Under the pieces are notes generated by a model that saw only the letters and a program-made list of their open reading frames with translations, did not search any database and was not told the DNA's origin. Below, piece after piece: positions 5,164 through 32,000 of a stretch of 32,000 nucleotides of DNA (the first letter of the stretch is position 1; the number at the start of each line of letters is the position of its first letter). The position numbers were made by a program, and so were the translations under genes. Origin of the DNA: Fastidiosibacter lacustris (GTDB taxonomy: Bacteria; Pseudomonadota; Gammaproteobacteria; Francisellales; Francisellaceae); NCBI RefSeq assembly GCF_003428155.1, contig NZ_QLIR01000014.1, positions 1-32,000 on the forward strand. Reading direction: 5' to 3'.

Positions 5164-5338
5164 TCTTAACTACATATCAGCTTGATGGATTAGGGCTATG
5201 GTATCAAAAAAGCGAATAAACAGGGATGATTGTTACTGATTTTTTTGGTTTAGAAAAAATCCCCAATCAGAATCGATAATTATACGATAAGGGCCCCAGG
5301 AAATTAAGCCTTCTCAGGATAGCTCTACAAGACTAAAA

Positions 5339-6556
5339 TTAGCGAATAATATCATGACTTTCATTGGCAAAAATAGCACGTGCATGTAGCAAATATAGGA
5401 TGATCGCCAGCACTGACAAAAGCAAAGCAAAGCTTAGCCATATCCAGAATATATTGGCACTTGATATAAAGGGGATAACGACAAATAAGGCAATGCCGCC
5501 TGTACATTTACCAATCAGATCAATAATGCTGATCCCTGTTGAGTGATATTGCTTATCGATGTTGCGTGCCACCAGAACGTTCACCAAATTAGTGGCATTG
5601 GATAGAAGACCGTTAAAGCTAGCATATAAAAATATAACAATAACAATCAAAGCAGTGCTGGAAGAGAAAAACAGTAATAAATACAAGGATGAGCTTGCTA
5701 AAAGGAGGCTAAGCACAATGGAGGGGATTAATGGTAGTTTTGTATAAATATATTTGCGAAATAGTATGGAATATAGATATTGTCCACATAAAGTAAATGA
5801 AAAAATAAGTGCCAAAACTAGAGGTTGTACTAAACCTGTATGGACAAAAAATGGCTGCCAATATTGATAAATAAACTGCATCATTCCTATACTAACGACC
5901 CCTGAGATGAGGAAAACTTTGCCTATATTACTGACTAAAAGATAACGAAATGCTGATACAAATATCATACGCGATGGTAATGGCTTTTCTTTATTTTCAG
6001 GCGCTCCAGCCTTCTCTTCAGGAAGTATGCAATAGAAAAGCGTCACTAAAATAAGACAAATAACGGTAATGATAAATACATAGGTTGATATCAGCGCACC
6101 AATGATGGAGGCAGTAGTAATAGATAAAAACACCATTTCAGAAGAGCGAATGATGTTGTTCATAAAGCGATAATCATGGCGCTTACTATTTAAATGCAGT
6201 AACCAAGCTTCATAACTGCCAGCATAGAACGCTAGTCCCATTCCATTAAAAATTTCACCTAAAATTACTTTATTAGAGGTTGGTTCTATTAGTAAGCTAA
6301 AATACATAATTTGGCACAAACACGCTATAATTAAAGCCTTTTTTCGACCATACCTATCGGCAACCATACCAGCAGGAATAGTGACAATGGTCGAAGTAAT
6401 TAATTGTAAAGCCTTGGCTAAAGTAAACGCTTGTAGGGATACGCCATGCGCTAGAATGACTACAACGATAATCGCACCTGGTAAGGTGCGTGAAAAATTG
6501 AAGAGAGCATTATTGATGAGTAATGCAGGAAGTGTTTTTTTATCTAACACAGTCAT
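5339..6556 (-). CDS. MFS-family transporter
   Basis: 405-aa polytopic hydrophobic protein. It has the MFS loop 2-3 signature (GMVADRYGRKKALII) and about 12 predicted TM segments. Confidence 0.75.
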   Translation of the reverse strand: MTVLDKKTLPALLINNALFNFSRTLPGAIIVVVILAHGVSLQAFTLAKALQLITSTIVTIPAGMVADRYGRKKALIIACLCQIMYFSLLIEPTSNKVILGEIFNGMGLAFYAGSYEAWLLHLNSKRHDYRFMNNIIRSSEMVFLSITTASIIGALISTYVFIITVICLILVTLFYCILPEEKAGAPENKEKPLPSRMIFVSAFRYLLVSNIGKVFLISGVVSIGMMQFIYQYWQPFFVHTGLVQPLVLALIFSFTLCGQYLYSILFRKYIYTKLPLIPSIVLSLLLASSSLYLLLFFSSSTALIVIVIFLYASFNGLLSNATNLVNVLVARNIDKQYHSTGISIIDLIGKCTGGIALFVVIPFISSANIFWIWLSFALLLSVLAIILYLLHARAIFANESHDIIR

Positions 6557-7640: not shown

Positions 7641-8525
7641 ATGTGGAGCATTTTGTCACTTATTGTGGCACAGATGGTAACTGGGATAAATATTACAGGT
7701 TCTAAGTTTCTAGTGGCAAACCTACCTATTGTCGTGCTACTGGAAATTCGATTTGTTGTTGGTAGCCTAGTGTTGATGCTGTGTATGCCTTTTTTGCAAC
7801 AAAAAAATAATCCACAAGATAAAATTTGCACTTTAGCCAAAAAGGATTGGTTTATTTTGATCATGCAAGCACTTTGTGCTGGAATGTTTTTTAACCTTCT
7901 TATGCTTTCTGGCATTCAGTTTACCACGGCTAGTATGGCAGGGCTTATTACTAGCACACTGCCAGCAATGATTATTATTCTATCATTCTTTATTTTTAAA
8001 CAACGCATCACGCGTTTAAAAGCACTATGCATCATATTTGCTACCATTGGTTTAATTGCGATTAATGGCACAAATATCACGGCTAATGATTTCTCATCGT
8101 TATCGCTTATCGGTGACGGGATTATTTTGATCGCGATGCTTCCTGAAGCGTTATACTATGTGATCAGCAAATTCAAAAGTACAGAGCTATCTGCTGTAAA
8201 ATCAGCATTTTTAATGAATATTATTAATGCCATTGCCATGGTCCCATTTTTGTTTTTTACCAATTGGTATGAATTAGTGGTACTTAGTTACATTGCTTAT
8301 TTTGTATTGCTTTTAGTTTCTATCTCTTCAGCGCTGTTTTATTTGTTTTGGTTTATGGGATGTAATCAAGTCAGCGCGAGCACAGCTGGACTCGTTACAG
8401 CAGCAATGCCAATTTCAACCCTGCTACTATCATTTATTTTTTTAGACGAAAAAATTACTCTCATTCAAGGCGTTGGAACGTTGCTTATCCTTACCTCTAT
8501 CATGCTTGGGGCAAGGAAAGGTTAA
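7641..8525 (+). CDS. DMT/EamA-family transporter
   Basis: About 10 TM segments arranged as two EamA-like halves. The track ORF starts at 7584, but ATG 7641 is preceded by AAGGAGG (7628-7634), so it is the likelier start. Confidence 0.75.
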   Translation: MWSILSLIVAQMVTGINITGSKFLVANLPIVVLLEIRFVVGSLVLMLCMPFLQQKNNPQDKICTLAKKDWFILIMQALCAGMFFNLLMLSGIQFTTASMAGLITSTLPAMIIILSFFIFKQRITRLKALCIIFATIGLIAINGTNITANDFSSLSLIGDGIILIAMLPEALYYVISKFKSTELSAVKSAFLMNIINAIAMVPFLFFTNWYELVVLSYIAYFVLLLVSISSALFYLFWFMGCNQVSASTAGLVTAAMPISTLLLSFIFLDEKITLIQGVGTLLILTSIMLGARKG

Positions 8526-9931
8526 CCGTGTTTAATAAACCTTCTAACACAAAAACATAACATGCTGCCGATTACCGTCAGTGCAATGAATAATAGTAGA
8601 CCTAAAGCCATACTTGATTTGACTGACTCAGTATCCCCGGCAATAGTTACACACTGTGAAATAGCACCCGCCAGTTTGCCACCAATGCCAAGTGTTACCA
8701 ACCATATGCCCATGTAGAGTGACACGTAATTCGGTGGCGCTAATTTAGTAATAAGCGATAAACCAATTGCAGAAAGCGATAGCTCACTAATTGCCATCAC
8801 TAAAAATGCAATGATCATATAAGTTGCAGCCATACTACTATCTATTGGTGTAAGTTTGATGCCAATCCAAATAATTAAAAAGACCAACGCTAATGTCATA
8901 AAGCCAAAGTTAAATTTATCGATATCATGTATCGGTTTGCCTTTGTGATCAAAGTAGAGCCATATTTTCCCCATGAAAAAGCCAAAAATAAGCACTCCAG
9001 CTGCCTCAAAACTTAAAAACTGAGAAGTTAATATATTCCAGCCCAGAAAATGTGAATTTACGCCTTGCGAGATAAATAACAATATCGAAATAAATATTTG
9101 AAAAAACAGCGCCCAGTATAAAATGGAAAGCACAAAAAACACTAACAACACGATTACATTACGCCAATATTTTTTTTGTGCCGAAAATGTCATAATCACC
9201 AAACATCCGATTGCTGCAACAATAATTGCTACATTTGCAATAATGGGATTTTTTAAAATAATGAACACCATCACAAAATATCCGACCAAAATAACAGTTG
9301 TTTTAGCAATAATAGTTAAGTTTATTCTGACTTCTTTTATGTGTTTAACCAACAAGAAAAAACCAATAATCAGATTTATTAGCACCAAAATCGAAACAAT
9401 TAAACTTGAATAAAACGGTGCTGCAAATCCATACGTGTCATTCAAATATGAAGCGATAAATAGCGCAGCAAAACCACCTGCATTAATACCAATGTAGAAG
9501 ATATTAAATCCAAAATCACGCTGCCCTTCAGTGGCGCCTGTATGATCATAAAAGCGTCCAATAAAAGAGCTAATATTCGACTTGATTAATCCCGTACTAA
9601 TTGAGATAAATGCAAGTCCAACAAATAGTAGATTTTCAGAACTTGCAATAGCAAGTATACAACTACCTGTAATCATGAATCCAACACCGAGTATTGCTGA
9701 GCGATAATAACTAATCAGTTTGTCAGCAATGTAGCCTCCCACTAAAGCAGAAATATATACCATGCTTAATACTGTTCCAACTAAAGAGGCGCTTGCTGCC
9801 TGTGGAAGATTAAATTTTTGGATTAAAAAGAAGATTAATAGTGATTGAATAACGTAGTAACTGTAGCGCTCTCCAAATTCAGTAAGGCTTGTGATGGTTA
9901 AAACGCTGGTTTGTCCTTTTAAAGTTTTCAT
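8522..9931 (-). CDS. POT/PTR2-family di-/tripeptide:proton symporter
   Basis: 469-aa polytopic protein with the PTR2 N-terminal signature (FGERYSYYVIQSLLIFFL) and GGYIADK motif. Confidence 0.8.
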   Translation of the reverse strand: MKTLKGQTSVLTITSLTEFGERYSYYVIQSLLIFFLIQKFNLPQAASASLVGTVLSMVYISALVGGYIADKLISYYRSAILGVGFMITGSCILAIASSENLLFVGLAFISISTGLIKSNISSFIGRFYDHTGATEGQRDFGFNIFYIGINAGGFAALFIASYLNDTYGFAAPFYSSLIVSILVLINLIIGFFLLVKHIKEVRINLTIIAKTTVILVGYFVMVFIILKNPIIANVAIIVAAIGCLVIMTFSAQKKYWRNVIVLLVFFVLSILYWALFFQIFISILLFISQGVNSHFLGWNILTSQFLSFEAAGVLIFGFFMGKIWLYFDHKGKPIHDIDKFNFGFMTLALVFLIIWIGIKLTPIDSSMAATYMIIAFLVMAISELSLSAIGLSLITKLAPPNYVSLYMGIWLVTLGIGGKLAGAISQCVTIAGDTESVKSSMALGLLLFIALTVIGSMLCFCVRRFIKHG

Positions 9932-18107: not shown

Positions 18108-19112
18108 ATGAGACAACGTATTAAAACAATTTTAGAAAATACGCCAACTCCGATGGCAGGTTTGGCATTGGGTATATCAGGCTTAGGTTGGAGTGCTGAA
18201 AATGCACTTTCTACTCATCATACTTTGCAGATTACAAGCGCGGGAATAGCATTAATATTGATCCTAGTCGTAGCCAGTAAATTTATGCTCTGGCCACAAA
18301 AACTGCTTACTGACCTATCTCATCCTGTTATTGGTAGCGTTGTCCCTACATTTGCGATGACACTTATGATTATTTCTAATAGTATCGAATATTTCAATCA
18401 TATTCTAGCTGAAATTGTATGGCTTATTGCAGTGATCATTCATTTGTTATTCTTAGCTACTTTTATCTTTCACAGAGCGAAAGTCTTTGAATTACATCAC
18501 ATGGTACCGTCATGGTTTGTACCACCAGTTGGGATTATTGTTGCTGACGTTGCTTTTCCAGGTGGGGTATTACAGCCATTGGCAATCACTTTGCTTTATT
18601 TCGGACTTGTTTGTTATGCAATTTTACTACCTGTAATGCTTTATCGCATTATTTTTTGTCATGAGATACCTGATGCGTCTAAACCAACTATTGCAATTTT
18701 TGCTGCACCTGCAAGTTTATCTTTAGCAGGTTACTTGACTGTTATCGAAGATCCTTCGCCAAATGTTGTTATCCTCCTTGTTGGTATTGCAATTCTCATG
18801 ACTGCTTTAATTTACATTGCATTTATTAAACTCATGACGCTTCCTTTTAGCCCAGGCTTTTCAGCATTTACGTTCCCAATGGCCATTGGCTCAACAGCTT
18901 TATTTAAAACAGCACATTGGGCAGAAACCGTTATACATCTTCCACCAGAATACGTTGCCCAAATATATTACCTTGCTGTATTTGAGCTTATTATCGCCAC
19001 ACTTGTTATTGGGTTTGTTGCCCAGCAATATTTGTATCACTTAGTGTTGAAAAAATTCAATATAGGTGCTGTAAACAAGGTGAGTGGGATGAAAAAGAAG
19101 ATTAACGCTTAG
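18108..19112 (+). CDS. TehA/TDT (tellurite-resistance/dicarboxylate transporter, SLAC1-like) family membrane protein
   Basis: 334-aa protein with about 10 TM segments, matching TDT family length and topology. It has a conserved WFVPPVG-type segment (SWFVPPVGIIV). Confidence 0.75.
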   Translation: MRQRIKTILENTPTPMAGLALGISGLGWSAENALSTHHTLQITSAGIALILILVVASKFMLWPQKLLTDLSHPVIGSVVPTFAMTLMIISNSIEYFNHILAEIVWLIAVIIHLLFLATFIFHRAKVFELHHMVPSWFVPPVGIIVADVAFPGGVLQPLAITLLYFGLVCYAILLPVMLYRIIFCHEIPDASKPTIAIFAAPASLSLAGYLTVIEDPSPNVVILLVGIAILMTALIYIAFIKLMTLPFSPGFSAFTFPMAIGSTALFKTAHWAETVIHLPPEYVAQIYYLAVFELIIATLVIGFVAQQYLYHLVLKKFNIGAVNKVSGMKKKINA

Positions 19113-24044: not shown

Positions 24045-24120
<76 letters not shown>

Positions 24121-24131
24121 TTATCGATATT

Positions 24132-24208
<77 letters not shown>

Positions 24209-24241
24209 TAGATTGGATACCGTCAATGGTGGAGAGAAAAT

Positions 24242-24318
24242 GCGCCCGTAGCTCATCTGGATAGAGCATCGGCCTTCTAAGCCGAGGGTAGCAGGTTCGA
24301 ATCCTGCCGGGCGTACCA
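24242..24318 (+). tRNA. tRNA-Arg (anticodon TCT)
   Basis: Acceptor stem is GCGCCCG/CGGGCGT (G1-U72), anticodon stem-loop TCGGC-CTTCTAA-GCCGA, T-arm GCAGG-TTCGAAT-CCTGC. CCA is encoded; 77 nt. Confidence 0.92.
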
Positions 24319-24332
24319 TGAAAAGAGTTTAT

Positions 24333-24409
24333 GGTGGACGTAGCTCAGTTGGTAGAGCCCCGGATTGTGATTCCGGTTGTCGTGGGTTCAAGTCCCATCG
24401 TTCACCCCA
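24333..24409 (+). tRNA. tRNA-His (anticodon GTG)
   Basis: It has the extra 5' G(-1) typical of tRNA-His. Acceptor stem is GTGGACG/CGTTCAC, anticodon loop TTGTGAT. CCA is encoded. Confidence 0.93.
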
Positions 24410-24414
24410 GATAT

Positions 24415-24497
24415 GCGGACGTGGCGAAATTGGTAGACGCACTGGATTTAGGTTCCAGCGGGTGACCGTGGGAGTTCGAGTCTCCCCGTCCGCACCA
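24415..24497 (+). tRNA. tRNA-Leu (anticodon TAG), long variable arm
   Basis: Acceptor stem is GCGGACG/CGTCCGC, anticodon stem-loop CTGGA-TTTAGGT-TCCAG. A long variable arm is present and CCA is encoded; 83 nt. The island integrase follows directly. Confidence 0.92.
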
Positions 24498-24633: not shown

Positions 24634-24682
24634 GCTATAATTTATCAATAAAAATTTCCAAATGTTGGATTTGGGGACACTT

Positions 24683-25945
24683 ATGCAGCTGAATGATAGT
24701 AAAATAAAGGGTTTGAAGTATACAGGGAAAGAAAAGCTTTACAGCGATGGTAGAGGTAGCATGCTATATCTTCGTGTAAGGGAGGTTTCAAAATCTTTTC
24801 TGTTTAAATACAAGCTTTCAGGAAAGACCTATAAACTTAGTTTAGGGACTTACCCTGATTTGTCCTTAAAAAACGCAAGAGAAAAAGCAGCAGAGTACAG
24901 GGAGTTGCTATCTAATGGAGTTGACCCCAAAACTTATAAAGACAAACAAAAAACAGAACATGACAAGACGCTTGAGCATATCGCTGCCTATTGGTTAGAC
25001 GTCAAGAAGAATGAGTTTTCTGCCAGTCACTACAAGCAAACCGTTAGCAGGCTAAACCGCTTTATTTTGCCAACCTTCGGTAAAAGGGATATTGACAAGA
25101 TAGACGCGCCAGAAGTCGTTAGGTTTTTAAAAAATTTTGAAGTTGAAGGACACCTTGAGCAGCGAAATAAGGTTAAAAGTCATCTTAAGCAAATCTTTGC
25201 TTATGGCGTGGCTAGTGGTGTATGTTCTCATAATCCAGTAGCAGGCATTAGCCCCGTTTTAAAAGTATCAAAAGGCAAAAACTATGCGGCAGTAACCAAG
25301 CCTGAGGATATAGCCAGTTTATTGCGTGATATTGATAACTACCATGGCTTTTATACTACTGTTATGGCGTTAAAACTCGCCCCCTATGTGATGTTACGTC
25401 CAAGTGAATTGGCAAAGCTTGAATGGGAAGAAATACACGAAGATGAAAAGCAAATACATATTAAGCCTGAGCGCATGAAAATGCGTAAAGCTCATATAGT
25501 ACCTTTGTCTAAACAAGCATGGGCTATTATTGAGCAAATGAAAGCATACTCTAGTAAAGGTGTGCACGTATTTCCAAGTGCAAAGAATCCACAAAAACCT
25601 ATTGATATAAACTCGCTTAGATTAGCATTAAGGGCAATGGGTTATAAATATTCATCGAATAGTGCGGAGCCAATGCGAGAAGGAGAGAAGCCAAAGCATG
25701 ATACTCATGGTTTTAGACATATGGCAAGCACGCGACTTTATGAGATGGCAAGTATGTATGGTTTTCATGGGGATATGATAGAGTTGCAACTAGCGCATGC
25801 AGAATCCAATAAAGTAAAAGCAGCTTATAATCATGCGCAATATATTAAAGAACGCACTAGAATGATGCAGATATGGGCGGATTACTTGGACAATCTAAGG
25901 GATGGTAAAAATGTGGTTAATCTATCTGATTTTAAAACTGGCTGA
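24683..25945 (+). CDS. int: P4-type tyrosine recombinase/integrase (DUF4102 N-terminal arm-binding domain)
   Basis: The N-terminus LNDSKIKGLKYTGKEKLYSDGRGSMLYLRV...YKLSLGTYPDLSLKNAREKA is characteristic of P4-like integrases. Catalytic HGFRH and LAHAE...AAYNHAQY (His/Arg/Tyr) are present. ATG 24683 has GGGGA 6 nt upstream; the track start is 24662. Confidence 0.9.
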   Translation: MQLNDSKIKGLKYTGKEKLYSDGRGSMLYLRVREVSKSFLFKYKLSGKTYKLSLGTYPDLSLKNAREKAAEYRELLSNGVDPKTYKDKQKTEHDKTLEHIAAYWLDVKKNEFSASHYKQTVSRLNRFILPTFGKRDIDKIDAPEVVRFLKNFEVEGHLEQRNKVKSHLKQIFAYGVASGVCSHNPVAGISPVLKVSKGKNYAAVTKPEDIASLLRDIDNYHGFYTTVMALKLAPYVMLRPSELAKLEWEEIHEDEKQIHIKPERMKMRKAHIVPLSKQAWAIIEQMKAYSSKGVHVFPSAKNPQKPIDINSLRLALRAMGYKYSSNSAEPMREGEKPKHDTHGFRHMASTRLYEMASMYGFHGDMIELQLAHAESNKVKAAYNHAQYIKERTRMMQIWADYLDNLRDGKNVVNLSDFKTG

Positions 25946-25963
25946 GAATAATACTAAATTTAT

Positions 25964-26185
25964 ATGGCTTTATCAGTTAGATTATCAGATGAATTGGTGA
26001 AACAAGCGCAAAGTGTAAGCGCTGTTATGTATCGCTCATGCGCAAAACAGATTGAGTACTGGGCAAGAATAGGGAAGATGGCAGAAGAGAATCCAGAACT
26101 AAGTTATGAATTTATTAGAGATACGTTAATTGCTAAGGCAGAATCTAATAATAATGATGTGAGCGATTATGAATTTGATAATTAA
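25964..26185 (+). CDS. ParD-like type II antitoxin
   Basis: 73 aa. VRLSDELVKQAQ...YRSCAKQIEYWARIGKMAEENPELSY matches my recollection of the ParD_like antitoxin family pattern (RxSDEL...RS...QIE.WA.IGK.AE.NP.L). Confidence 0.55.
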   Translation: MALSVRLSDELVKQAQSVSAVMYRSCAKQIEYWARIGKMAEENPELSYEFIRDTLIAKAESNNNDVSDYEFDN

Positions 26186-27652: not shown

Positions 27653-27710
27653 AATATGGGGTGATTGGTCGACTACCCCATATTAGCCCCCTTTTTCTTT
27701 TCCTTTTTTG
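27653..27710 (+). terminator. putative intrinsic terminator after the 354-aa gene
   Basis: Perfect 10-bp stem AATATGGGGT/ACCCCATATT with a 12-nt loop, followed by the T-rich tract CCCCCTTTTTCTTTTCCTTTTTTG. Confidence 0.5.
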
Positions 27711-27727
27711 TCTCTCATAATACACCC

Positions 27728-27749
27728 CAAGACTTGGCGCCAAGTCTTG
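27728..27749. promoter_or_regulatory. perfect 22-bp palindrome CAAGACTTGGC|GCCAAGTCTTG upstream of alpA
   Basis: Read directly from the sequence. It lies 42-63 nt upstream of the alpA ATG (27791) and is operator-like. Confidence 0.4.
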
Positions 27750-27790
27750 TTAAATAGTGATTGTATAAAGTCTATTAAAAAGGGGAAACC

Positions 27791-27997
27791 ATGAATTTAA
27801 ATATTATTAAATTACCGTTGGTGGTTGAAAAAACAAGCCTTTCAACTGCATCCATATATCGATTAGCTAAAGTGGGTAAGTTTCCAGCTCCTGTAAAGCT
27901 AAGTGAGCGTTCAAGCGGCTGGCTTGAATCGGATGTAAATCAATGGATTGATAATCGCATTAAAGCACGTGATGGTAAATTGAGTAAAGGGGTGTAG
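27791..27997 (+). CDS. alpA: AlpA-family transcriptional regulator/excisionase-like protein
   Basis: 68 aa. LSTASIYRLAKVGKFPAPVKLSERSSGWLESDVNQWI is the AlpA/phage-regulatory HTH signature. AAGGGGA RBS. Confidence 0.85.
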   Translation: MNLNIIKLPLVVEKTSLSTASIYRLAKVGKFPAPVKLSERSSGWLESDVNQWIDNRIKARDGKLSKGV

Positions 27998-27999
27998 GC

Positions 28000-28281
28000 A
28001 TGTTAAGTAATGAAATTCAACTAAGTAAACGTCAATTAAGGACACTTGAAGAGTTGGCTTTAAAGGGTGAAGTGTCAAGGCTTGAGTTGAGTCGCTATGC
28101 GGGGTTAAATACACCTGAAACCATAAGCCAGTTACGTAAAAAGGGATGCATTATCCATATGGTTAGAAAACCCCGCGTTGACCATTATGGTGTGAAGGTT
28201 TACGCGGGGTTTTACAGCTTGGATAAAAGCCAGAAAGATGATGCTTGTAAGCTAGTAATTAAAAACAAGGAGGTGAAATGA
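28000..28281 (+). CDS. small winged-helix DNA-binding protein (HTH_39-like pattern)
   Basis: 93 aa. It starts 2 nt after the alpA stop. LRTLEELALKGEVSRLELSRYAGLNTPETISQLRKKGCIIHMV...YSL resembles the wHTH family common in satellite and prophage elements. Confidence 0.55.
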   Translation: MLSNEIQLSKRQLRTLEELALKGEVSRLELSRYAGLNTPETISQLRKKGCIIHMVRKPRVDHYGVKVYAGFYSLDKSQKDDACKLVIKNKEVK

Positions 28282-28553
28282 TGATTGATAATAAGTTTAA
28301 TCAAAAAGTAAAAGGAAATCACATTGGTGATTCCCTGTTTACTTCCCGCCCCACAATGTTATACTGCGCTCGTTCGGGCGTAGTAACCTGCAAAAACAAG
28401 CGTAATCATGCGATAAATGGTATCAATATATTTTCATCTTGGCTACTTGTTTTTCAAGTTGTCGGGTGGTGGCGTAAATACAATACCCGTTTCATTATGG
28501 GAAATAGCGCCAGCCTTACTTGTTTGAGGTTACTAACCACCCGATTAATTTAG
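28278..28553 (+). CDS. doubtful 91-aa ORF overlapping structured element E1
   Basis: For: AAGGAGGTG RBS, and ATG overlaps the upstream stop (ATGA). Against: the composition is W/C/R/H-rich and non-protein-like. The 3' third is the E1 element, whose conservation with E2 is out of frame. Confidence 0.25.
   Translation: MMIDNKFNQKVKGNHIGDSLFTSRPTMLYCARSGVVTCKNKRNHAINGINIFSSWLLVFQVVGWWRKYNTRFIMGNSASLTCLRLLTTRLI
28462..28544 (+). ncRNA. candidate structured RNA element E1 (three-way junction, c4/CI-like antisense immunity RNA candidate)
   Basis: P1 is TCGGGTGG (28462-69) / CCACCCGA (28537-44). P2 is TGGCGT (28470-75) / GCGCCA (28507-12). P3 is GCCT (28513-16) / AGGT (28527-30). The P3 5' strand plus loop (CTTACTTGTTT, 28515-28525) is complementary to SD regions at 28263-28273 and 28561-28570. 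Confidence 0.45.
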
Positions 28554-28579
28554 TAATACAAAACAAGGAATCAAATTAT

Positions 28580-29017
28580 ATGAATAATCTAAACCGTATA
28601 ACGCGGCGTTCGTATTCTCATACTGGTGTAGAAGTACAAAGCCCGCGCTATACAGTCACTCATGAACCAACTGATAAAACCAACGACATCAGTCAATGCA
28701 ATTGTATATCAATAGCCCCGTCTTGGTTTTGTGCTTTTAATCTGTTAAGCTTGCGAATGTTGGTCGTAGAAAGCCAGCAAAAACGTTCGGGCTTAGAAAC
28801 CCAGATACTACCAAAACGCGGAGCTTATCAAACCGTTAAACTTGATATTCAAACGATTATATCTCATTTATGGCTAGTTATAGCTTCATGGTTTCATATA
28901 ATCGGGTGGGCGCATCAATACAACACCTTTATGGGAATAATGCGCGCTGTTTCGTTTTGGGCAGTTTCTAACCACCCGATTTTTAAGGATAACCAAAACG
29001 GAGCTAAACCATGGTAG
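28580..29017 (+). CDS. doubtful 145-aa ORF overlapping structured element E2 (possible coupling ORF)
   Basis: ATG 28580 is 9 nt after AAGGAA, and the stop overlaps ATG 29011 (ATGGTAG). The composition is W/H/C/R-rich and atypical for this AT-rich genome. The 3' part is the E2 element. The track ORF starts at 28520. Confidence 0.25.
   Translation: MNNLNRITRRSYSHTGVEVQSPRYTVTHEPTDKTNDISQCNCISIAPSWFCAFNLLSLRMLVVESQQKRSGLETQILPKRGAYQTVKLDIQTIISHLWLVIASWFHIIGWAHQYNTFMGIMRAVSFWAVSNHPIFKDNQNGAKPW
28902..28979 (+). ncRNA. candidate structured RNA element E2 (paralog of E1)
   Basis: P1 is TCGGGTGG (28902-09) / CCACCCGA (28972-79). P2 is GCGCAT (28910-15) / ATGCGC (28940-45). P3 is GCTG (28946-49) / CAGT (28962-65). 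GTTTCGTTTTGG (28949-28960) pairs 12/12 (2 G-U) with CCAAAACGGAGC (28993-29004), the SD of ATG 29011. ATTTTT follows P1. Confidence 0.45.
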
Positions 29018-29598
29018 TAAAAACAATTATTTTCAATGACAAAAACATCACTATCCATTATATAAATGGTGATTACTATTTATCCATCGTTAAAATTATG
29101 GATGATTTAAACTTAGACTTTAACGACACCGTAAAAGCCTTAATGAAATCGTCATATTTACATATAACCGCCGATGACGTGACTATTAAATTATCTGAAT
29201 TAAACAACTGGCTTAATACGATGGATAAAAGCAAACTAGATAATGGTTCTTTACTTTTTTTAGCTGAGTATCAATCGTCATTACTGAATATTATTAAGCA
29301 TGAAATTAACCAACTATCACAAGCCTCTAAGCCAAAGCCTAAATATAATTTTCATATTTTCCAAGGTTCAGTAAGTACCAGAAAGCATAATGAATCAATT
29401 TATCTATCCGCAATGGATTTGTGTGAACATCTAGGAGTCAATAAAGAAGAAAATATCAATAGACTTATTAATGATGAAGATTTTAATGGCTTTTTACATT
29501 ACTCAATCAATGGCTTATATATCAGTGAAATAATTGCGCAATGGTGGATTGGCAAGCTTACTGGTACACATAATCAAGTAAAGGGGGTTAGGCTATGA
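29011..29598 (+). CDS. hypothetical protein; possible tandem KilA-N/Bro-N-like (antirepressor-type) DNA-binding folds
   Basis: 195 aa with GGAG 7 nt upstream. Two internally similar segments occur (IIFNDKNITIHYINGDYYLSIVKIMDDLNL... and HIFQGSVSTRKHNESIYLSAMDLCEHLGV...). They resemble the 'F..g..ir....g..w..a.d....lg' pattern of KilA-N/Bro-N domains. The functional call is tentative. Confidence 0.6.
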   Translation: MVVKTIIFNDKNITIHYINGDYYLSIVKIMDDLNLDFNDTVKALMKSSYLHITADDVTIKLSELNNWLNTMDKSKLDNGSLLFLAEYQSSLLNIIKHEINQLSQASKPKPKYNFHIFQGSVSTRKHNESIYLSAMDLCEHLGVNKEENINRLINDEDFNGFLHYSINGLYISEIIAQWWIGKLTGTHNQVKGVRL

Positions 29599-30500
29599 GG
29601 CTTGAAGAATATATGCTTAAATGCGGCTATACGCCCCCAAGTGTAATTAATCCAGATGGCTACAATCGATACCCCGCTCCAGACAAAGGAAAGGGTAATA
29701 AAGCAGGCTGGCTGATTGTTATTAGTGAAGAGTGTGCCGTTTTTGGTGATTGGGTGAGTCAAAGCAAATACGTATGGCATGCCAATATGGATAAGATGAG
29801 TCATACGGAAAGAACAGCAGCCTATGAGTGCGCTATACACCAGGCAGAAAGATTGAAGCTTGAGCTGCAACAGCAGCAAGAAGAAGTAGCACATCAATGC
29901 CAGTTCATTTTGAATAACTCAGAGAAGGCGCAAGATAGTCATGCTTATTTAGTCAAAAAAAGCGTTATTTCTTTTGGGCTTCATTGGGCTCCACACTTAC
30001 AAGGCGTGGATAATGCGTTAATTGTCCCTATTTATGGTTTTGATGATGGTGCCAATACATTACTGCAATCGCTGCAAATAATCTCGCCTCAAGGAGACAA
30101 ACGCTTTTTTAAGGGTGGACGAAAGAAGGCGGGATTCTATCCCTTGCAGGTAAGAGAAGGCAAAGATGTAAGGATATTAATTGCGGAGGGCTATGCAACA
30201 GCAGCAAGCTTGGCAATGGTTCAGCCAAACGATAGCGTTTATTGCGCTTTTGACGCGGGTAATTTAAAAGATGTTGCTTTATCCCTACGCAAGTACCACC
30301 CATTTAGTAAAATCGTTATATGCGCCGACAATGACCGCTTTAATGACAAAAACACCGGTGTGCTTGCTGCAAGAGACGCGGCTAACTCTGCCGATGCTGT
30401 TTGTATCGTCCCTAGGTTTGAAACGGAAGAAACAGGCACAGATTGGAATGATTGGCTAGTGCTAAGGGGATATATAGGAACAAAGGAGGTGCAATCATGA
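29595..30500 (+). CDS. Toprim-domain DNA primase (phage/plasmid primase-associated type, P4 alpha N-terminal-like)
   Basis: The N-terminus ...NKAGWLIVISEECAVFGDWVSQSKYVW matches the primase-associated domain pattern. Toprim motifs are ILIAEGYATAASL (catalytic Glu) and VICADNDRFND (DxD). The ATGA start overlaps the upstream stop. Confidence 0.8.
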   Translation: MRLEEYMLKCGYTPPSVINPDGYNRYPAPDKGKGNKAGWLIVISEECAVFGDWVSQSKYVWHANMDKMSHTERTAAYECAIHQAERLKLELQQQQEEVAHQCQFILNNSEKAQDSHAYLVKKSVISFGLHWAPHLQGVDNALIVPIYGFDDGANTLLQSLQIISPQGDKRFFKGGRKKAGFYPLQVREGKDVRILIAEGYATAASLAMVQPNDSVYCAFDAGNLKDVALSLRKYHPFSKIVICADNDRFNDKNTGVLAARDAANSADAVCIVPRFETEETGTDWNDWLVLRGYIGTKEVQS

Positions 30501-31471
30501 ACCAGTTTAATGAACAAAGCAATCAAGCCAGTGCAAGCGACCTTGTAACAAATGAGCTTAAAGAACAGGGGATAATAACGCCGCAAATTGTACCAATTAA
30601 ATACGGTGATTTTAAAAAACTAAACCTTAAAAGCGCGGAGTTCCTTTTATATCCAATCATTGAAGAACAGGGGTTAGCCATGATTTACGCTATGCGTGGG
30701 GTTGGCAAAACTCATGTAAGCTTAAATATTGCCTACGCCGTGGCAACGGGTGGAAGCTTTTTAAAATGGAAAGCCAGGCGCCCAGCTAAGGTCTTATTTA
30801 TTGATGGGGAAATGCCAGCATATGCACTGCATGAACGGTTAAAGGTAATTGACCAAGGTAGAGGGTTTGCAGATGACAATTTAAATATTATCACCCCCGA
30901 TTTGTTAAAGGATAAAATCCCGCCAGACTTGGCAACGTCTACAGGGTGGAAGGCTGTAGAAGCTGCTGTGAATGATGTGGATTTAATCATTGTTGATAAT
31001 ATCAGCACACTTTGCCGCAATGGTAGAGACAATGAGGCAGATAGCTGGATACCTGTTCAACATTGGGCACTTAAATGGCGTGCGCAAGGCAAAGCAATAT
31101 TATTTATCCATCACTCCAATAAAAACGGCGACCAAAGGGGAACTAGTAAAAAAGAGGATGTGCTTAGCACAGTTATAAAGCTAGAACATGAAGAAGGTTA
31201 TAGTGCAGAAGACGGCGCTGCCTTTAGGGTAAGCCATACCAAGTCAAGATTGTTTCATGGTGAGGACGCCAAACCGTTTAAAGCAGCACTAACAAGCAAT
31301 GGCTGGGTATATGAAGATTGCGAAGCAGGAATCAAAGAAGAGGTGTGGGCACTCCATAATGATGGGATGAAGCAAGTTGATATTGCCAGAGAGCTTGGGC
31401 TTGAAAAATATCAAGTGACCAGAATCATTCAAAAGCATAAAAAATGTGATGGAATTTTAAGGACCGTATAA
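30497..31471 (+). CDS. RecA-fold AAA ATPase / RepA-like replicative helicase with C-terminal HTH
   Basis: Walker A is MRGVGKTHVSLNIA and Walker B is LIIVDNIS. IHHSNKNGDQRGTSKKEDV is typical of the AAA_25/RepA-like family. The C-terminus has MKQVDIARELGLEKYQVTRIIQKH (HTH). ATG 30497 follows AGGAGG and overlaps the primase stop (ATGA). Confidence 0.8.
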   Translation: MNQFNEQSNQASASDLVTNELKEQGIITPQIVPIKYGDFKKLNLKSAEFLLYPIIEEQGLAMIYAMRGVGKTHVSLNIAYAVATGGSFLKWKARRPAKVLFIDGEMPAYALHERLKVIDQGRGFADDNLNIITPDLLKDKIPPDLATSTGWKAVEAAVNDVDLIIVDNISTLCRNGRDNEADSWIPVQHWALKWRAQGKAILFIHHSNKNGDQRGTSKKEDVLSTVIKLEHEEGYSAEDGAAFRVSHTKSRLFHGEDAKPFKAALTSNGWVYEDCEAGIKEEVWALHNDGMKQVDIARELGLEKYQVTRIIQKHKKCDGILRTV

Positions 31472-31806: not shown

Positions 31807-32000
31807 ATGATTAAATCACACGTCAAAAATGACGAGCAAAAAAACATCAATTCTGGAGGTGAAATCCTCGGAGATGTATCCGAAAAAACAACACCAAAAA
31901 CACTGGTGGATTTAGTGCCATACGGAATAACTGTATTAGATGCTGCTTATGTTAAGCAACTGCTTGTTCATACCACTTGGTTTTCAAGGTATGAAGTTAT
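31807..32000 (+). CDS. 5' part of an unknown island gene (open to window end)
   Basis: ATG 31807 follows TAGGAG (31790-31795). 64 codons (MIKSHVKNDEQKNINSGGEILGDVSEKTTPKTLVDLVPYGITVLDAAYVKQLLVHTTWFSRYEV...) run without a stop to position 32000. It is absent from the ORF track because it is incomplete. Confidence 0.4.
   Translation, partial: MIKSHVKNDEQKNINSGGEILGDVSEKTTPKTLVDLVPYGITVLDAAYVKQLLVHTTWFSRYEV

Follow-up and report, generated by a model that had tools for sequence, protein, structure and literature searches.

In a 32,000-nucleotide stretch of Fastidiosibacter lacustris DNA (contig NZ_QLIR01000014.1, positions 1 to 32,000; hereafter the window), two related elements, E1 and E2, lie between a gene for a winged-helix-like protein (wHTH) and an antirepressor-like gene. 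We consider it very likely that they are two tandem, differently addressed antisense "immunity" RNAs of the c4/CI type, that they belong to the sRNA-Xcc1 class of small RNAs (sRNAs), and that they occupy the replication-operon leader in a P4-like or PICI-like (phage-inducible chromosomal island) element next to a tRNA-Leu gene. What the analysis shows is the fold, the addresses, the targets placed on Shine-Dalgarno (SD) sequences and the covariation of these targets, as well as synteny and coupling of the open frames. An earlier note on this DNA had proposed a c4/CI-like interpretation, which held on every computable point, namely the covariation of helices and targets, the topology known from c4 of phage P1, and the nature of the downstream genes. 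The RNAs, their target sites (a and b), and the open reading frames (ORFs) that cross them are the following:

28253 to 28273, plus strand: extra target module of E1, found with a composite pattern, with a-site TAGTAA (28253-58) and b-site AAACAAGGAGG (28263-73); overlaps the SD of the ATG at 28278.
28278 to 28553, plus strand: ORF91, a hypothetical protein in the Prokaryotic Genome Annotation Pipeline (PGAP) annotation (WP_116964342.1); crosses the E1 leader and E1 and ends at the a2 site of E1.
28371 to 28402, plus strand: E1 leader, beginning CGTTCGGGC, with a1 TAGTAAC (28381-87) and b1 AAACAAGCG (28394-402); aligns with the E2 leader.
28462 to 28544, plus strand: E1 RNA; sRNA-Xcc1 47 bits, R1 (a covariance model described below) 46.9 bits, fold -32 kcal/mol, z = -4.0.
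28550 to 28570, plus strand: downstream targets of E1, a2 TTAGTAA (28550-56) and b2 AAACAAGGAA (28561-70); b2 overlaps the SD of the ATG at 28580.
28580 to 29017, plus strand: ORF145 (PGAP, WP_116964343.1); crosses the E2 leader and E2, and its stop TAG (29015-17) overlaps the gene starting at ATG 29011.
28784 to 28824, plus strand: E2 leader, beginning CGTTCGGGC, with a1 TTAGAAAC (28793-800) and b1 CCAAAACGCGGAGC (28811-24); layout shared with the homologous loci L131 and L128.
28902 to 28979, plus strand: E2 RNA; sRNA-Xcc1 50 bits, R1 52.4 bits, fold -26.5 kcal/mol, z = -2.5.
28993 to 29004, plus strand: b2 target of E2, CCAAAACGGAGC; overlaps the SD (GGAG) of the ATG at 29011.

As judged from their sequences, E1 and E2 are real structured RNAs encoded on the plus strand. 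Each folds as a three-way junction made up of the closing stem P1, a P2 arm in which an invariant internal loop (AAUACAAYACC ... GGGAA) lies below a small apical hairpin, and a P3 arm, and the minimum free energy structures from RNAfold contain the same helices as the cmscan alignment. Folding better than that of shuffled sequences is confined to the plus strand (z = -4.0 for E1 and -2.5 for E2). The sequence statements of the earlier note all proved correct when checked again: the 8-bp closing stem is identical in both elements (TCGGGTGG/CCACCCGA); P2 is UGGCGU/GCGCCA in E1, with one G-U pair, and GCGCAU/AUGCGC in E2; P3 is GCCU..AGGU in E1 and GCUG..CAGU in E2, both lengthened to 7 bp by RNAfold; the blocks AATACAAYACC and GGGAA occur in both; and the lengths are 83 and 78 nt, respectively. 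From 5′ to 3′, E1 consists of P1, P2 with a AAUACAAUACC/GGGAA internal loop, P3 with the address segment b′ (28515-25), and the J3/1 linker with the address segment a′ (TTACTAA, 28530-36). In E2, b′ is GTTTCGTTTTGG (28949-60) and a′ is GTTTCTAA (28964-71), and AUUUUU follows directly 3′ of the element. Both contain every invariant column of a 96-sequence family alignment, and the two units, each a leader plus its RNA, can be aligned over about 220 nt.

The family to which they belong, a point absent from the earlier note, was given by Rfam. In a permissive scan, the sRNA-Xcc1 model (RF02221) matched E1 with 47.0 bits (E = 1.1e-6) and E2 with 50.0 bits (E = 2e-7), and the cmscan alignment spans model positions 1-87 for both. 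The check with the Rfam C4 model that the earlier note had suggested left E1 and E2 unmatched, the elements belonging to sRNA-Xcc1, while in positive controls with the same tool, that model gave 68.8 bits for P1 c4 and 74.9 bits for P4 CI. Elsewhere, sRNA-Xcc1 scored 54.7 to 83.6 bits for 20 elements in 13 of the 14 viral or metagenome-assembled genome (MAG) loci scanned, L005 having none above the threshold. A motif scan of viral contigs found at least 120 loci, with 95 unique RNAs after a first pass of end finding and 98 after refinement; the family-wide figures given here rest on viral-contig loci among the matches listed. A narrower DNA pattern specific to E1 and E2 matched one MAG among genome contigs and three metagenome contigs.

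The covariance model R1, built from 19 viral-contig members with no sequence from the window, found only two matches in the 32 kb, E2 (52.4 bits, E = 1.5e-11) and E1 (46.9 bits, E = 3.9e-10), both on the plus strand; the next-best match in the window reached 11.9 bits, and the minus strand of the elements 8-9 bits. Helix covariation across homologues, which the earlier note had proposed as a test, is strong. In a model-guided alignment of 99 distinct sequences, which is fitted to the model and hence favours the structure, pairing is kept in 99.0% of helix cells, compensatory double changes are seen at 12 of 20 pairs, and the covariation score is 0.433, compared with 0.130 after shuffling (0 of 500 shuffles reached the observed value) and at most 0.066 with the partners slid. 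A gap-free alignment of a subclass independently gives the same covariation in P2 and P3. With MAFFT and RNAalifold on a set of mixed lengths, P2 and P3 were misaligned, so that no helix other than P1 and the apical hairpin was recovered.

The address segments of both RNAs have partners close by. The earlier note had paired E1 28515-28525 (CTTACTTGTTT) with two sites and E2 with one, and we find the same: the E1 segment pairs at 10 of 11 positions with 28263-28273, one G-U included, and at 9 of 10 with 28561-28570, and E2 28949-28960 pairs at 12 of 12 with 28993-29004, including 2 G-U; the core target CCAAAACG does recur at 28811-28818. That note contained neither the second contact, between the J3/1 linker and an "a" site, nor the canonical E1 leader at 28371-28402. 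On these pairings, E1 is predicted to address the starts at 28278 and 28580, and E2 the antirepressor-like gene at 29011. The composite pattern TAGTAA-N(2-14)-AAACAAG occurs three times on the plus strand around E1, with 0.06 occurrences expected in the whole window, and so defines three a-b modules for E1, at 28253-28273 (SD of ATG 28278), 28381-28402 (leader), and 28550-28570 (SD of ATG 28580); a fourth local match is E1's own antisense. Both RNAs have complementary a1/b1 sites (28381-402 and 28793-824), at which the c4-a1b1 and isrK models give no match. These leaders lie about 80-110 nt upstream of their RNAs, and the a1 site of E2 is located in the loop of a small GGG/CCC hairpin (28789-28802). 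With their own downstream 45 nt, E1 and E2 form duplexes of -15.3 (bipartite) and -18.5 kcal/mol, 8 kcal/mol better than with shuffled targets (-7.0±2.1 and -10.3±2.5 kcal/mol, with 2 of 500 equally good in each case).

Three smaller observations concern the same region. The E1 b′ loop has a sense-strand copy, CTACTTGTTT (28443-28452), which stands 10 nt upstream of E1 and could pair with b1 (28394-28400) inside the leader. The sole promoter-like site on the plus strand of the region, TTTACT-16-TATACT with an upstream TG (28338-28365), would start transcription at 28371, the first base of the E1 leader, a position resembling that of PLE, an internal promoter of P4. As a promoter for E2, a TATAAT at 28897-28902 was dismissed, since it reaches into P1, sharing the first base of that stem.

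The earlier note had also seen the loops and their targets vary together between the two copies, and this covariation is found both across the family and among homologous islands. For the family, we used probes defined by position and compared the longest Watson-Crick run with an RNA's own flank (cognate) and with the flanks of dissimilar RNAs (non-cognate). For the P3 core, the cognate and non-cognate runs were 6.73 and 4.68 nt in the downstream 120 nt (p = 4.6e-32) and 7.27 and 5.29 nt in the upstream 300 nt (p = 2.6e-33); for the linker, they were 6.56 and 4.18 nt in the downstream 70 nt (p = 1.9e-15) and 6.92 and 5.08 nt in the upstream 300 nt (p = 2.5e-14). Probes were placed by position after constraint folding had parsed the loops of only 46 of 96 RNAs and a simple hairpin finder had mis-parsed some. 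Longest runs over the whole RNA and duplex energies over the whole of P3 were noisy, since conserved linkers and GC-rich stems pair promiscuously, and E1 ranked poorly by that measure. Throughout the family, b2 abuts GAG or GGAG with a start codon 6-12 nt further on, the upstream layout places a1 in a small hairpin loop followed by b1, and the genes that follow encode AntA, KilA-N, ORF6N, Bro-N, P22_AR_N, or Rha domains.

The homologous islands came from a HMMER search of ORF145 against 1.84 billion representatives, which returned three related "proteins" (P0006-P0008), 47-60% identical, whose contigs are syntenic islands; their RNAs were located with R1. In L131, the order is AlpA, a 93-aa ORF, ORF104, the RNA, CsrA, a P22_AR_N-like gene, and a Toprim primase, the 93-aa ORF occupying the wHTH position with no Pfam match and 45% nucleotide identity to the gene in the window. 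In L128-L130, it is integrase, DUF6387, AlpA, AntA, wHTH, the RNA, a 31-aa ORF, and primase. Among E2, L131, and L128, the P3 loop varies jointly with b1 and b2, and the linker with a1 and a2. The P3 loop and its target are CGTTTTGG and CCAAAACG in E2, CGTTTTTGG and CAAAAACG in L131, and CTAGTGTAG with CACTAG and TACACTAG in L128; the linker and its target are TTTCTAA and TTAGAAAC in E2 and TTTTGAA and TTCAAAAC in L131 and L128. For downstream flanks, a 6x6 cognate matrix is dominated by its diagonal. Mean column identity in these three sequences is 82% for the RNA unit, compared with 45-61% for the flanking genes.

Other loci add observations of their own. In L123 (2537-2612, a Gammaproteobacteria MAG) and L126 (991-1067, a metagenome), near-identical sRNA-Xcc1 RNAs differ almost solely in the P3 loop (TCCTTGGT and GTCCTGATT, respectively), and b1 and b2 carry matching changes (ACCAAG... 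and ATCAGG...). In L131, a CsrA homologue (Pfam CsrA, 5233-5414) stands directly behind the b2/SD site of the RNA and was fused by the gene caller, in frame, to the open frame that crosses the RNA. L052 (7577-9493) carries six modules, namely sRNA-Xcc1, isrK plus C4, and four more sRNA-Xcc1, the last four spaced about 380 nt apart; because C4 and sRNA-Xcc1 modules interleave in this array, the two RNA classes are interchangeable parts. Behind three of these last four modules comes a truncated Bro-N ORF, 127 aa long in two cases and 139 aa in the third, where the call begins at a GTG further upstream. Each of these ORFs crosses the following RNA and overlaps the start after it in the ATGA manner, and the full-length gene, of 197 aa, comes last.

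It is highly improbable, in our judgement, that 28278-29017 is ordinary coding sequence for two paralogous hypothetical proteins, with the similarity of E1 and E2 due to a shared protein domain. Such an explanation would fit the PGAP annotation of both ORFs, the 47-60% identity of the "proteins" found with HMMER, and the improbable length of the frames, as only 12 of 5000 dinucleotide shuffles were as open as ORF91 and none of 5000 as open as ORF145. The same single frame is, moreover, open in all three homologues, L128 and L131 included, and each of the three internal indels is 3 nt long. Nevertheless, the codon-usage scores of ORF91 (0.003) and ORF145 (0.024) are in the non-coding range, true genes scoring 0.19±0.06 and coding pieces of equal length having a 5th percentile of 0.10-0.12, and neither ORF has a Pfam or PHROG match. 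Substitutions by codon position, 0.27/0.23/0.32 for the leader and 0.15/0.26/0.15 for the RNA, lack the periodicity of the coding type seen in the wHTH control (0.20/0.13/0.39). The codon-periodic, third-position conservation that the earlier note had named as evidence against an RNA is thus not seen in the RNA, which has no such bias, and is weak in the leader. The reading frame differs between the two elements in their 3′ halves, as that note had observed for the shared 3′ strand of P1, and both this and the strong covariation of helices and targets argue against a coding explanation. Its statement that conservation is not at the protein level was right; what has to be added is that one frame stays open through each unit, as with eta/kil of P4. 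We rejected embedding in an ORF as a family-wide trait, since the RNA lies inside an ORF in only 7 of the 35 AT-rich family loci.

If E1 and E2 are c4/CI-type immunity RNAs, their mode of action may be sketched after the model of P1 c4 and P4 CI. Cut from the operon transcript, the RNAs would accumulate and would then pair with the a and b sites on new transcripts, blocking ribosome binding. Since coupling of translation extends along the whole gene chain, with open frames across the RNA units, lost translation would expose the transcript to premature, Rho-type termination, and the antirepressor-like gene, the primase, and the helicase would stay off until a signal from upstream drives translation through. 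Two units with different addresses would act as two locks in series. In P4, according to PMC10111431 (citing Forti 1999), eta is coupled to alpA, and translation of eta prevents termination.

A different view of the same parts is that the elements are mainly cis attenuators, in which P1 and a U-run (in E2, CCACCCGAUUUUU) would stop the transcript short of the antirepressor-like gene, and the flanking sites would be anti-terminator and anti-antiterminator partners and not targets of a diffusible RNA. The AUUUUU right after E2 fits this view, as do the 3′ end of the Rfam sRNA-Xcc1 consensus (CCCuuuu), the nine-T run (TCTTTTTTTTT) past P1 in L041, and the control of termination in P4 by pairing of CI with seqA, as described in the same paper. 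However, E1 has no U-run (GAUUAAUUUAG), most family members carry CACC and a separate hairpin instead, and a terminator scan of the plus strand of the region found nothing. In addition, b2 lies on the SD in essentially all members, a placement that a pure attenuator does not need. We therefore regard a mainly attenuating role as unlikely, while the U-run of E2 may add a contribution of this kind to repression by an immunity RNA.

The literature describes sRNA-Xcc1 as a trans-acting sRNA that is controlled by HrpG/HrpX and linked to virulence, as well as being cargo of extracellular vesicles. On this model, proposed for Xanthomonas sRNA-Xcc1 and the sXF RNAs of Xylella, the main targets of E1 and E2 would be mRNAs of the host, or even of a eukaryotic host, and an additional match to the composite target pattern at 18606-18629 could be cited in its favour. 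That match, however, is on the minus strand, antisense to a plus-strand gene, and is probably due to chance, and the window holds no other match to the target patterns. As the covarying partners are encoded in cis, less than 200 nt from the RNA in nearly all family members, we give very little credence to host mRNAs as the main targets.

The closest parallels for the c4/CI-type reading are in phages P1 and P4, and the likeness that the earlier note drew to P1 immI and P4 immunity, with an upstream target, an RNA, an SD-overlapping target, an antirepressor-type gene, and a primase, is supported. In P1 c4, for which Rfam and GenBank give the same picture in alignment and features, two hairpins are enclosed by an outer stem; b′ (CACUAAC), in the second hairpin loop, pairs with b2 at the ribosome binding site of icd, a′ (CUGUCAA, in the 3′ linker) pairs with a2, and the sites a1 and b1 are located upstream of the RNA. 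The immI regions of P1 and P7 (a1b1-c4-a2b2-icd-ant; C4, RF01695) and the window thus share the outer stem with two hairpins, the placement of b′ and a′, the location of all parts on one transcript, what appears to be an upstream a1/b1 duplicate, a downstream gene of the antirepressor type, and short variable specificity segments (heteroimmunity in the phages). In the C4-type arrangement, a′ and b′ face downstream a2 and b2 sites, with b2 on the next ribosome binding site; E1 has both sites, and E2 has b2 only. Apart from being unmatched by the C4 model at E <= 10, the RNAs in the window differ from c4 in the first hairpin, which is short with a UUCG in c4 and long with the AAUACAAYACC/GGGAA internal loop in E1 and E2; in the closing stem, which has 8 bp compared with about 17 bp; and in the presence of two tandem units, with the same order of sites except for the missing a2 of E2.

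In P4 immunity (CI, or seqB, with seqA/seqC and eta/kil), as in the window, the island carries an integrase, the RNA region has an AlpA-family gene on one side and the primase on the other, and targets are found both upstream and downstream. P4 CI is a C4-family RNA (74.9 bits) that lies under an annotated ORF and whose leader matches isrK and c4-a1b1. The window, in contrast, matches none of these three models, has two RNAs with different addresses, and shows no psu, sid, or delta up to its end at 32000. The embedding is nonetheless P4-like, ORF91 running from the ATGA at the wHTH stop through E1, and ORF145 through E2 to a point 4 nt past the ATG at 29011. In phage P4 (L132), GenBank keeps a 137-aa "cI gene product" coding sequence (8168-8584) across the CI RNA (C4 match at 8420-8507), an annotation of the same kind as ORF91 and ORF145.

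As for sRNA-Xcc1 itself, known from a Xanthomonas integron sRNA, the sXF1-5 arrays of Xylella, and a copy in phage APSE that lies upstream of an ORF6N gene, E1 and E2 share its helices and invariant loop motifs over a full-length match, and tandem arrays spaced about 380-440 nt are known from Xylella and L052. The searched literature contains no account of covarying flanking targets and no link between sRNA-Xcc1 and c4/CI, and in Rfam, C4 and c4-a1b1 share clan CL00128 while sRNA-Xcc1 is in no clan.

Several observations weigh against our interpretation. E1 and E2 miss the sRNA-Xcc1 gathering score of 53 bits by 3-6 bits, in which they differ from the known members, and the C4, c4-a1b1, and isrK models give no match in 27700-29700, even at E <= 10. 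No a2 site is recognisable for E2, the longest run being 4 nt. The CACC-like tail that usually follows the closing stem in the family is absent after E1 and E2, so their processing may differ. ORF145, which lies downstream of E1, has neither an antirepressor domain nor codon usage of the coding type. The promoter and terminator scan of the region gave no signal above chance, and a translational block would look the same as termination or attenuation from sequence alone.

Given that c4/CI RNAs, their occurrence in satellites, tandem sRNA-Xcc1 arrays, and embedding in an ORF (in P4) are all known, E1 and E2 would be new, divergent members. The modest new point, which follows from the missing link in Rfam clans and in the searched literature and is one of statistics, is that the sRNA-Xcc1 family appears to behave as a c4-type immunity RNA. 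A much broader proposal, which we offer tentatively and with some doubt, is that the whole family forms a second, larger branch of c4/CI RNAs, acting as cis-encoded, address-bearing repressors of antirepressor genes (occasionally of toxin or CsrA genes) in prophages, satellites, and integron cassettes, and that the present lineage keeps its RNA units in translated ORFs of non-coding character. If this embedding is real, translation through a unit and maturation of its RNA would be mutually exclusive, which would make a self-reinforcing bistable switch, and tandem units with different addresses could serve as serial locks or provide cross-immunity against other elements. On the immunity-RNA reading itself, WP_116964342.1 and WP_116964343.1 are better read as carriers of immunity RNAs, as was once the case for the "cI protein" of P4, and the RNA-immunity design of P1 and P4 extends to an island in Fastidiosibacter. 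Covarying cis targets on the ribosome binding sites of antirepressor genes, for which the statistical evidence is strong, also bear on the sRNA-Xcc1 copies of Xanthomonas and Xylella, which are now discussed as virulence or vesicle-delivered sRNAs.

The remaining genes of the island, in which a 354-aa protein of unknown function precedes AlpA and the E1 and E2 units precede the P22_AR_N-like gene, are listed below, those from AlpA onward being on the plus strand:

24662 to 25945: integrase, tyrosine type.
25964 to 26185: ParD-like antitoxin gene (Pfam E = 1.3e-20).
27791 to 27997: AlpA-family excisionase/regulator (Pfam Phage_AlpA E = 2.8e-16; PHROG "excisionase and transcriptional regulator").
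28000 to 28281: wHTH protein, 93 aa (weak ScpB and HTH_91 matches).
29011 to 29598: P22_AR_N-like gene of the Bro network, antirepressor type (Pfam P22_AR_N E = 6.3e-7).
29595 to 30500: Toprim primase (Pfam/PHROG searches).
30497 to 31471: AAA_25 helicase-like gene (Pfam/PHROG searches).

Five tRNA genes (Phe, Pro, Arg, His, and Leu; 24045-24497) lie directly upstream of the integrase, for which reason the island is probably attached at tRNA-Leu(tag); its other end may lie beyond the window, which ends shortly past the helicase. AlpA heads a tightly packed gene chain, in which ATGA-type overlaps join wHTH to ORF91 (the wHTH stop TGA sharing the overlap with ATG 28278), ORF145 to the antirepressor-like gene, that gene to the primase, and the primase to the helicase. 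The P22_AR_N match of the 29011 gene, with 30.0 bits, is just below the cutoff of 30.7, and its PHROG anti-repressor matches are weak; the L131 homologue has 191 aa. The protein had no homologue besides itself among 5.8 billion proteins, and exact look-ups of it and of the ORF145 homologue P0006 returned no contig. In the viral contigs, searches with the primase and the antirepressor-like protein gave two distant loci for the former and none for the latter, and blastn of 27790-29600 against phage and plasmid collections gave no match. The ParD-like gene adjoins the integrase, with no obvious toxin ORF alongside as a partner. The wHTH gene is 76% identical in nucleotides to its L128 homologue, and its coding region contains, at 28164-28216, two GC-rich arms (AAAACCCCGCG ... 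CGCGGGGTTTT) that form a perfect 11-bp inverted repeat around a loop of 23 nt; this repeat is not conserved in that homologue and gives weak Rfam "F6" matches on both strands.

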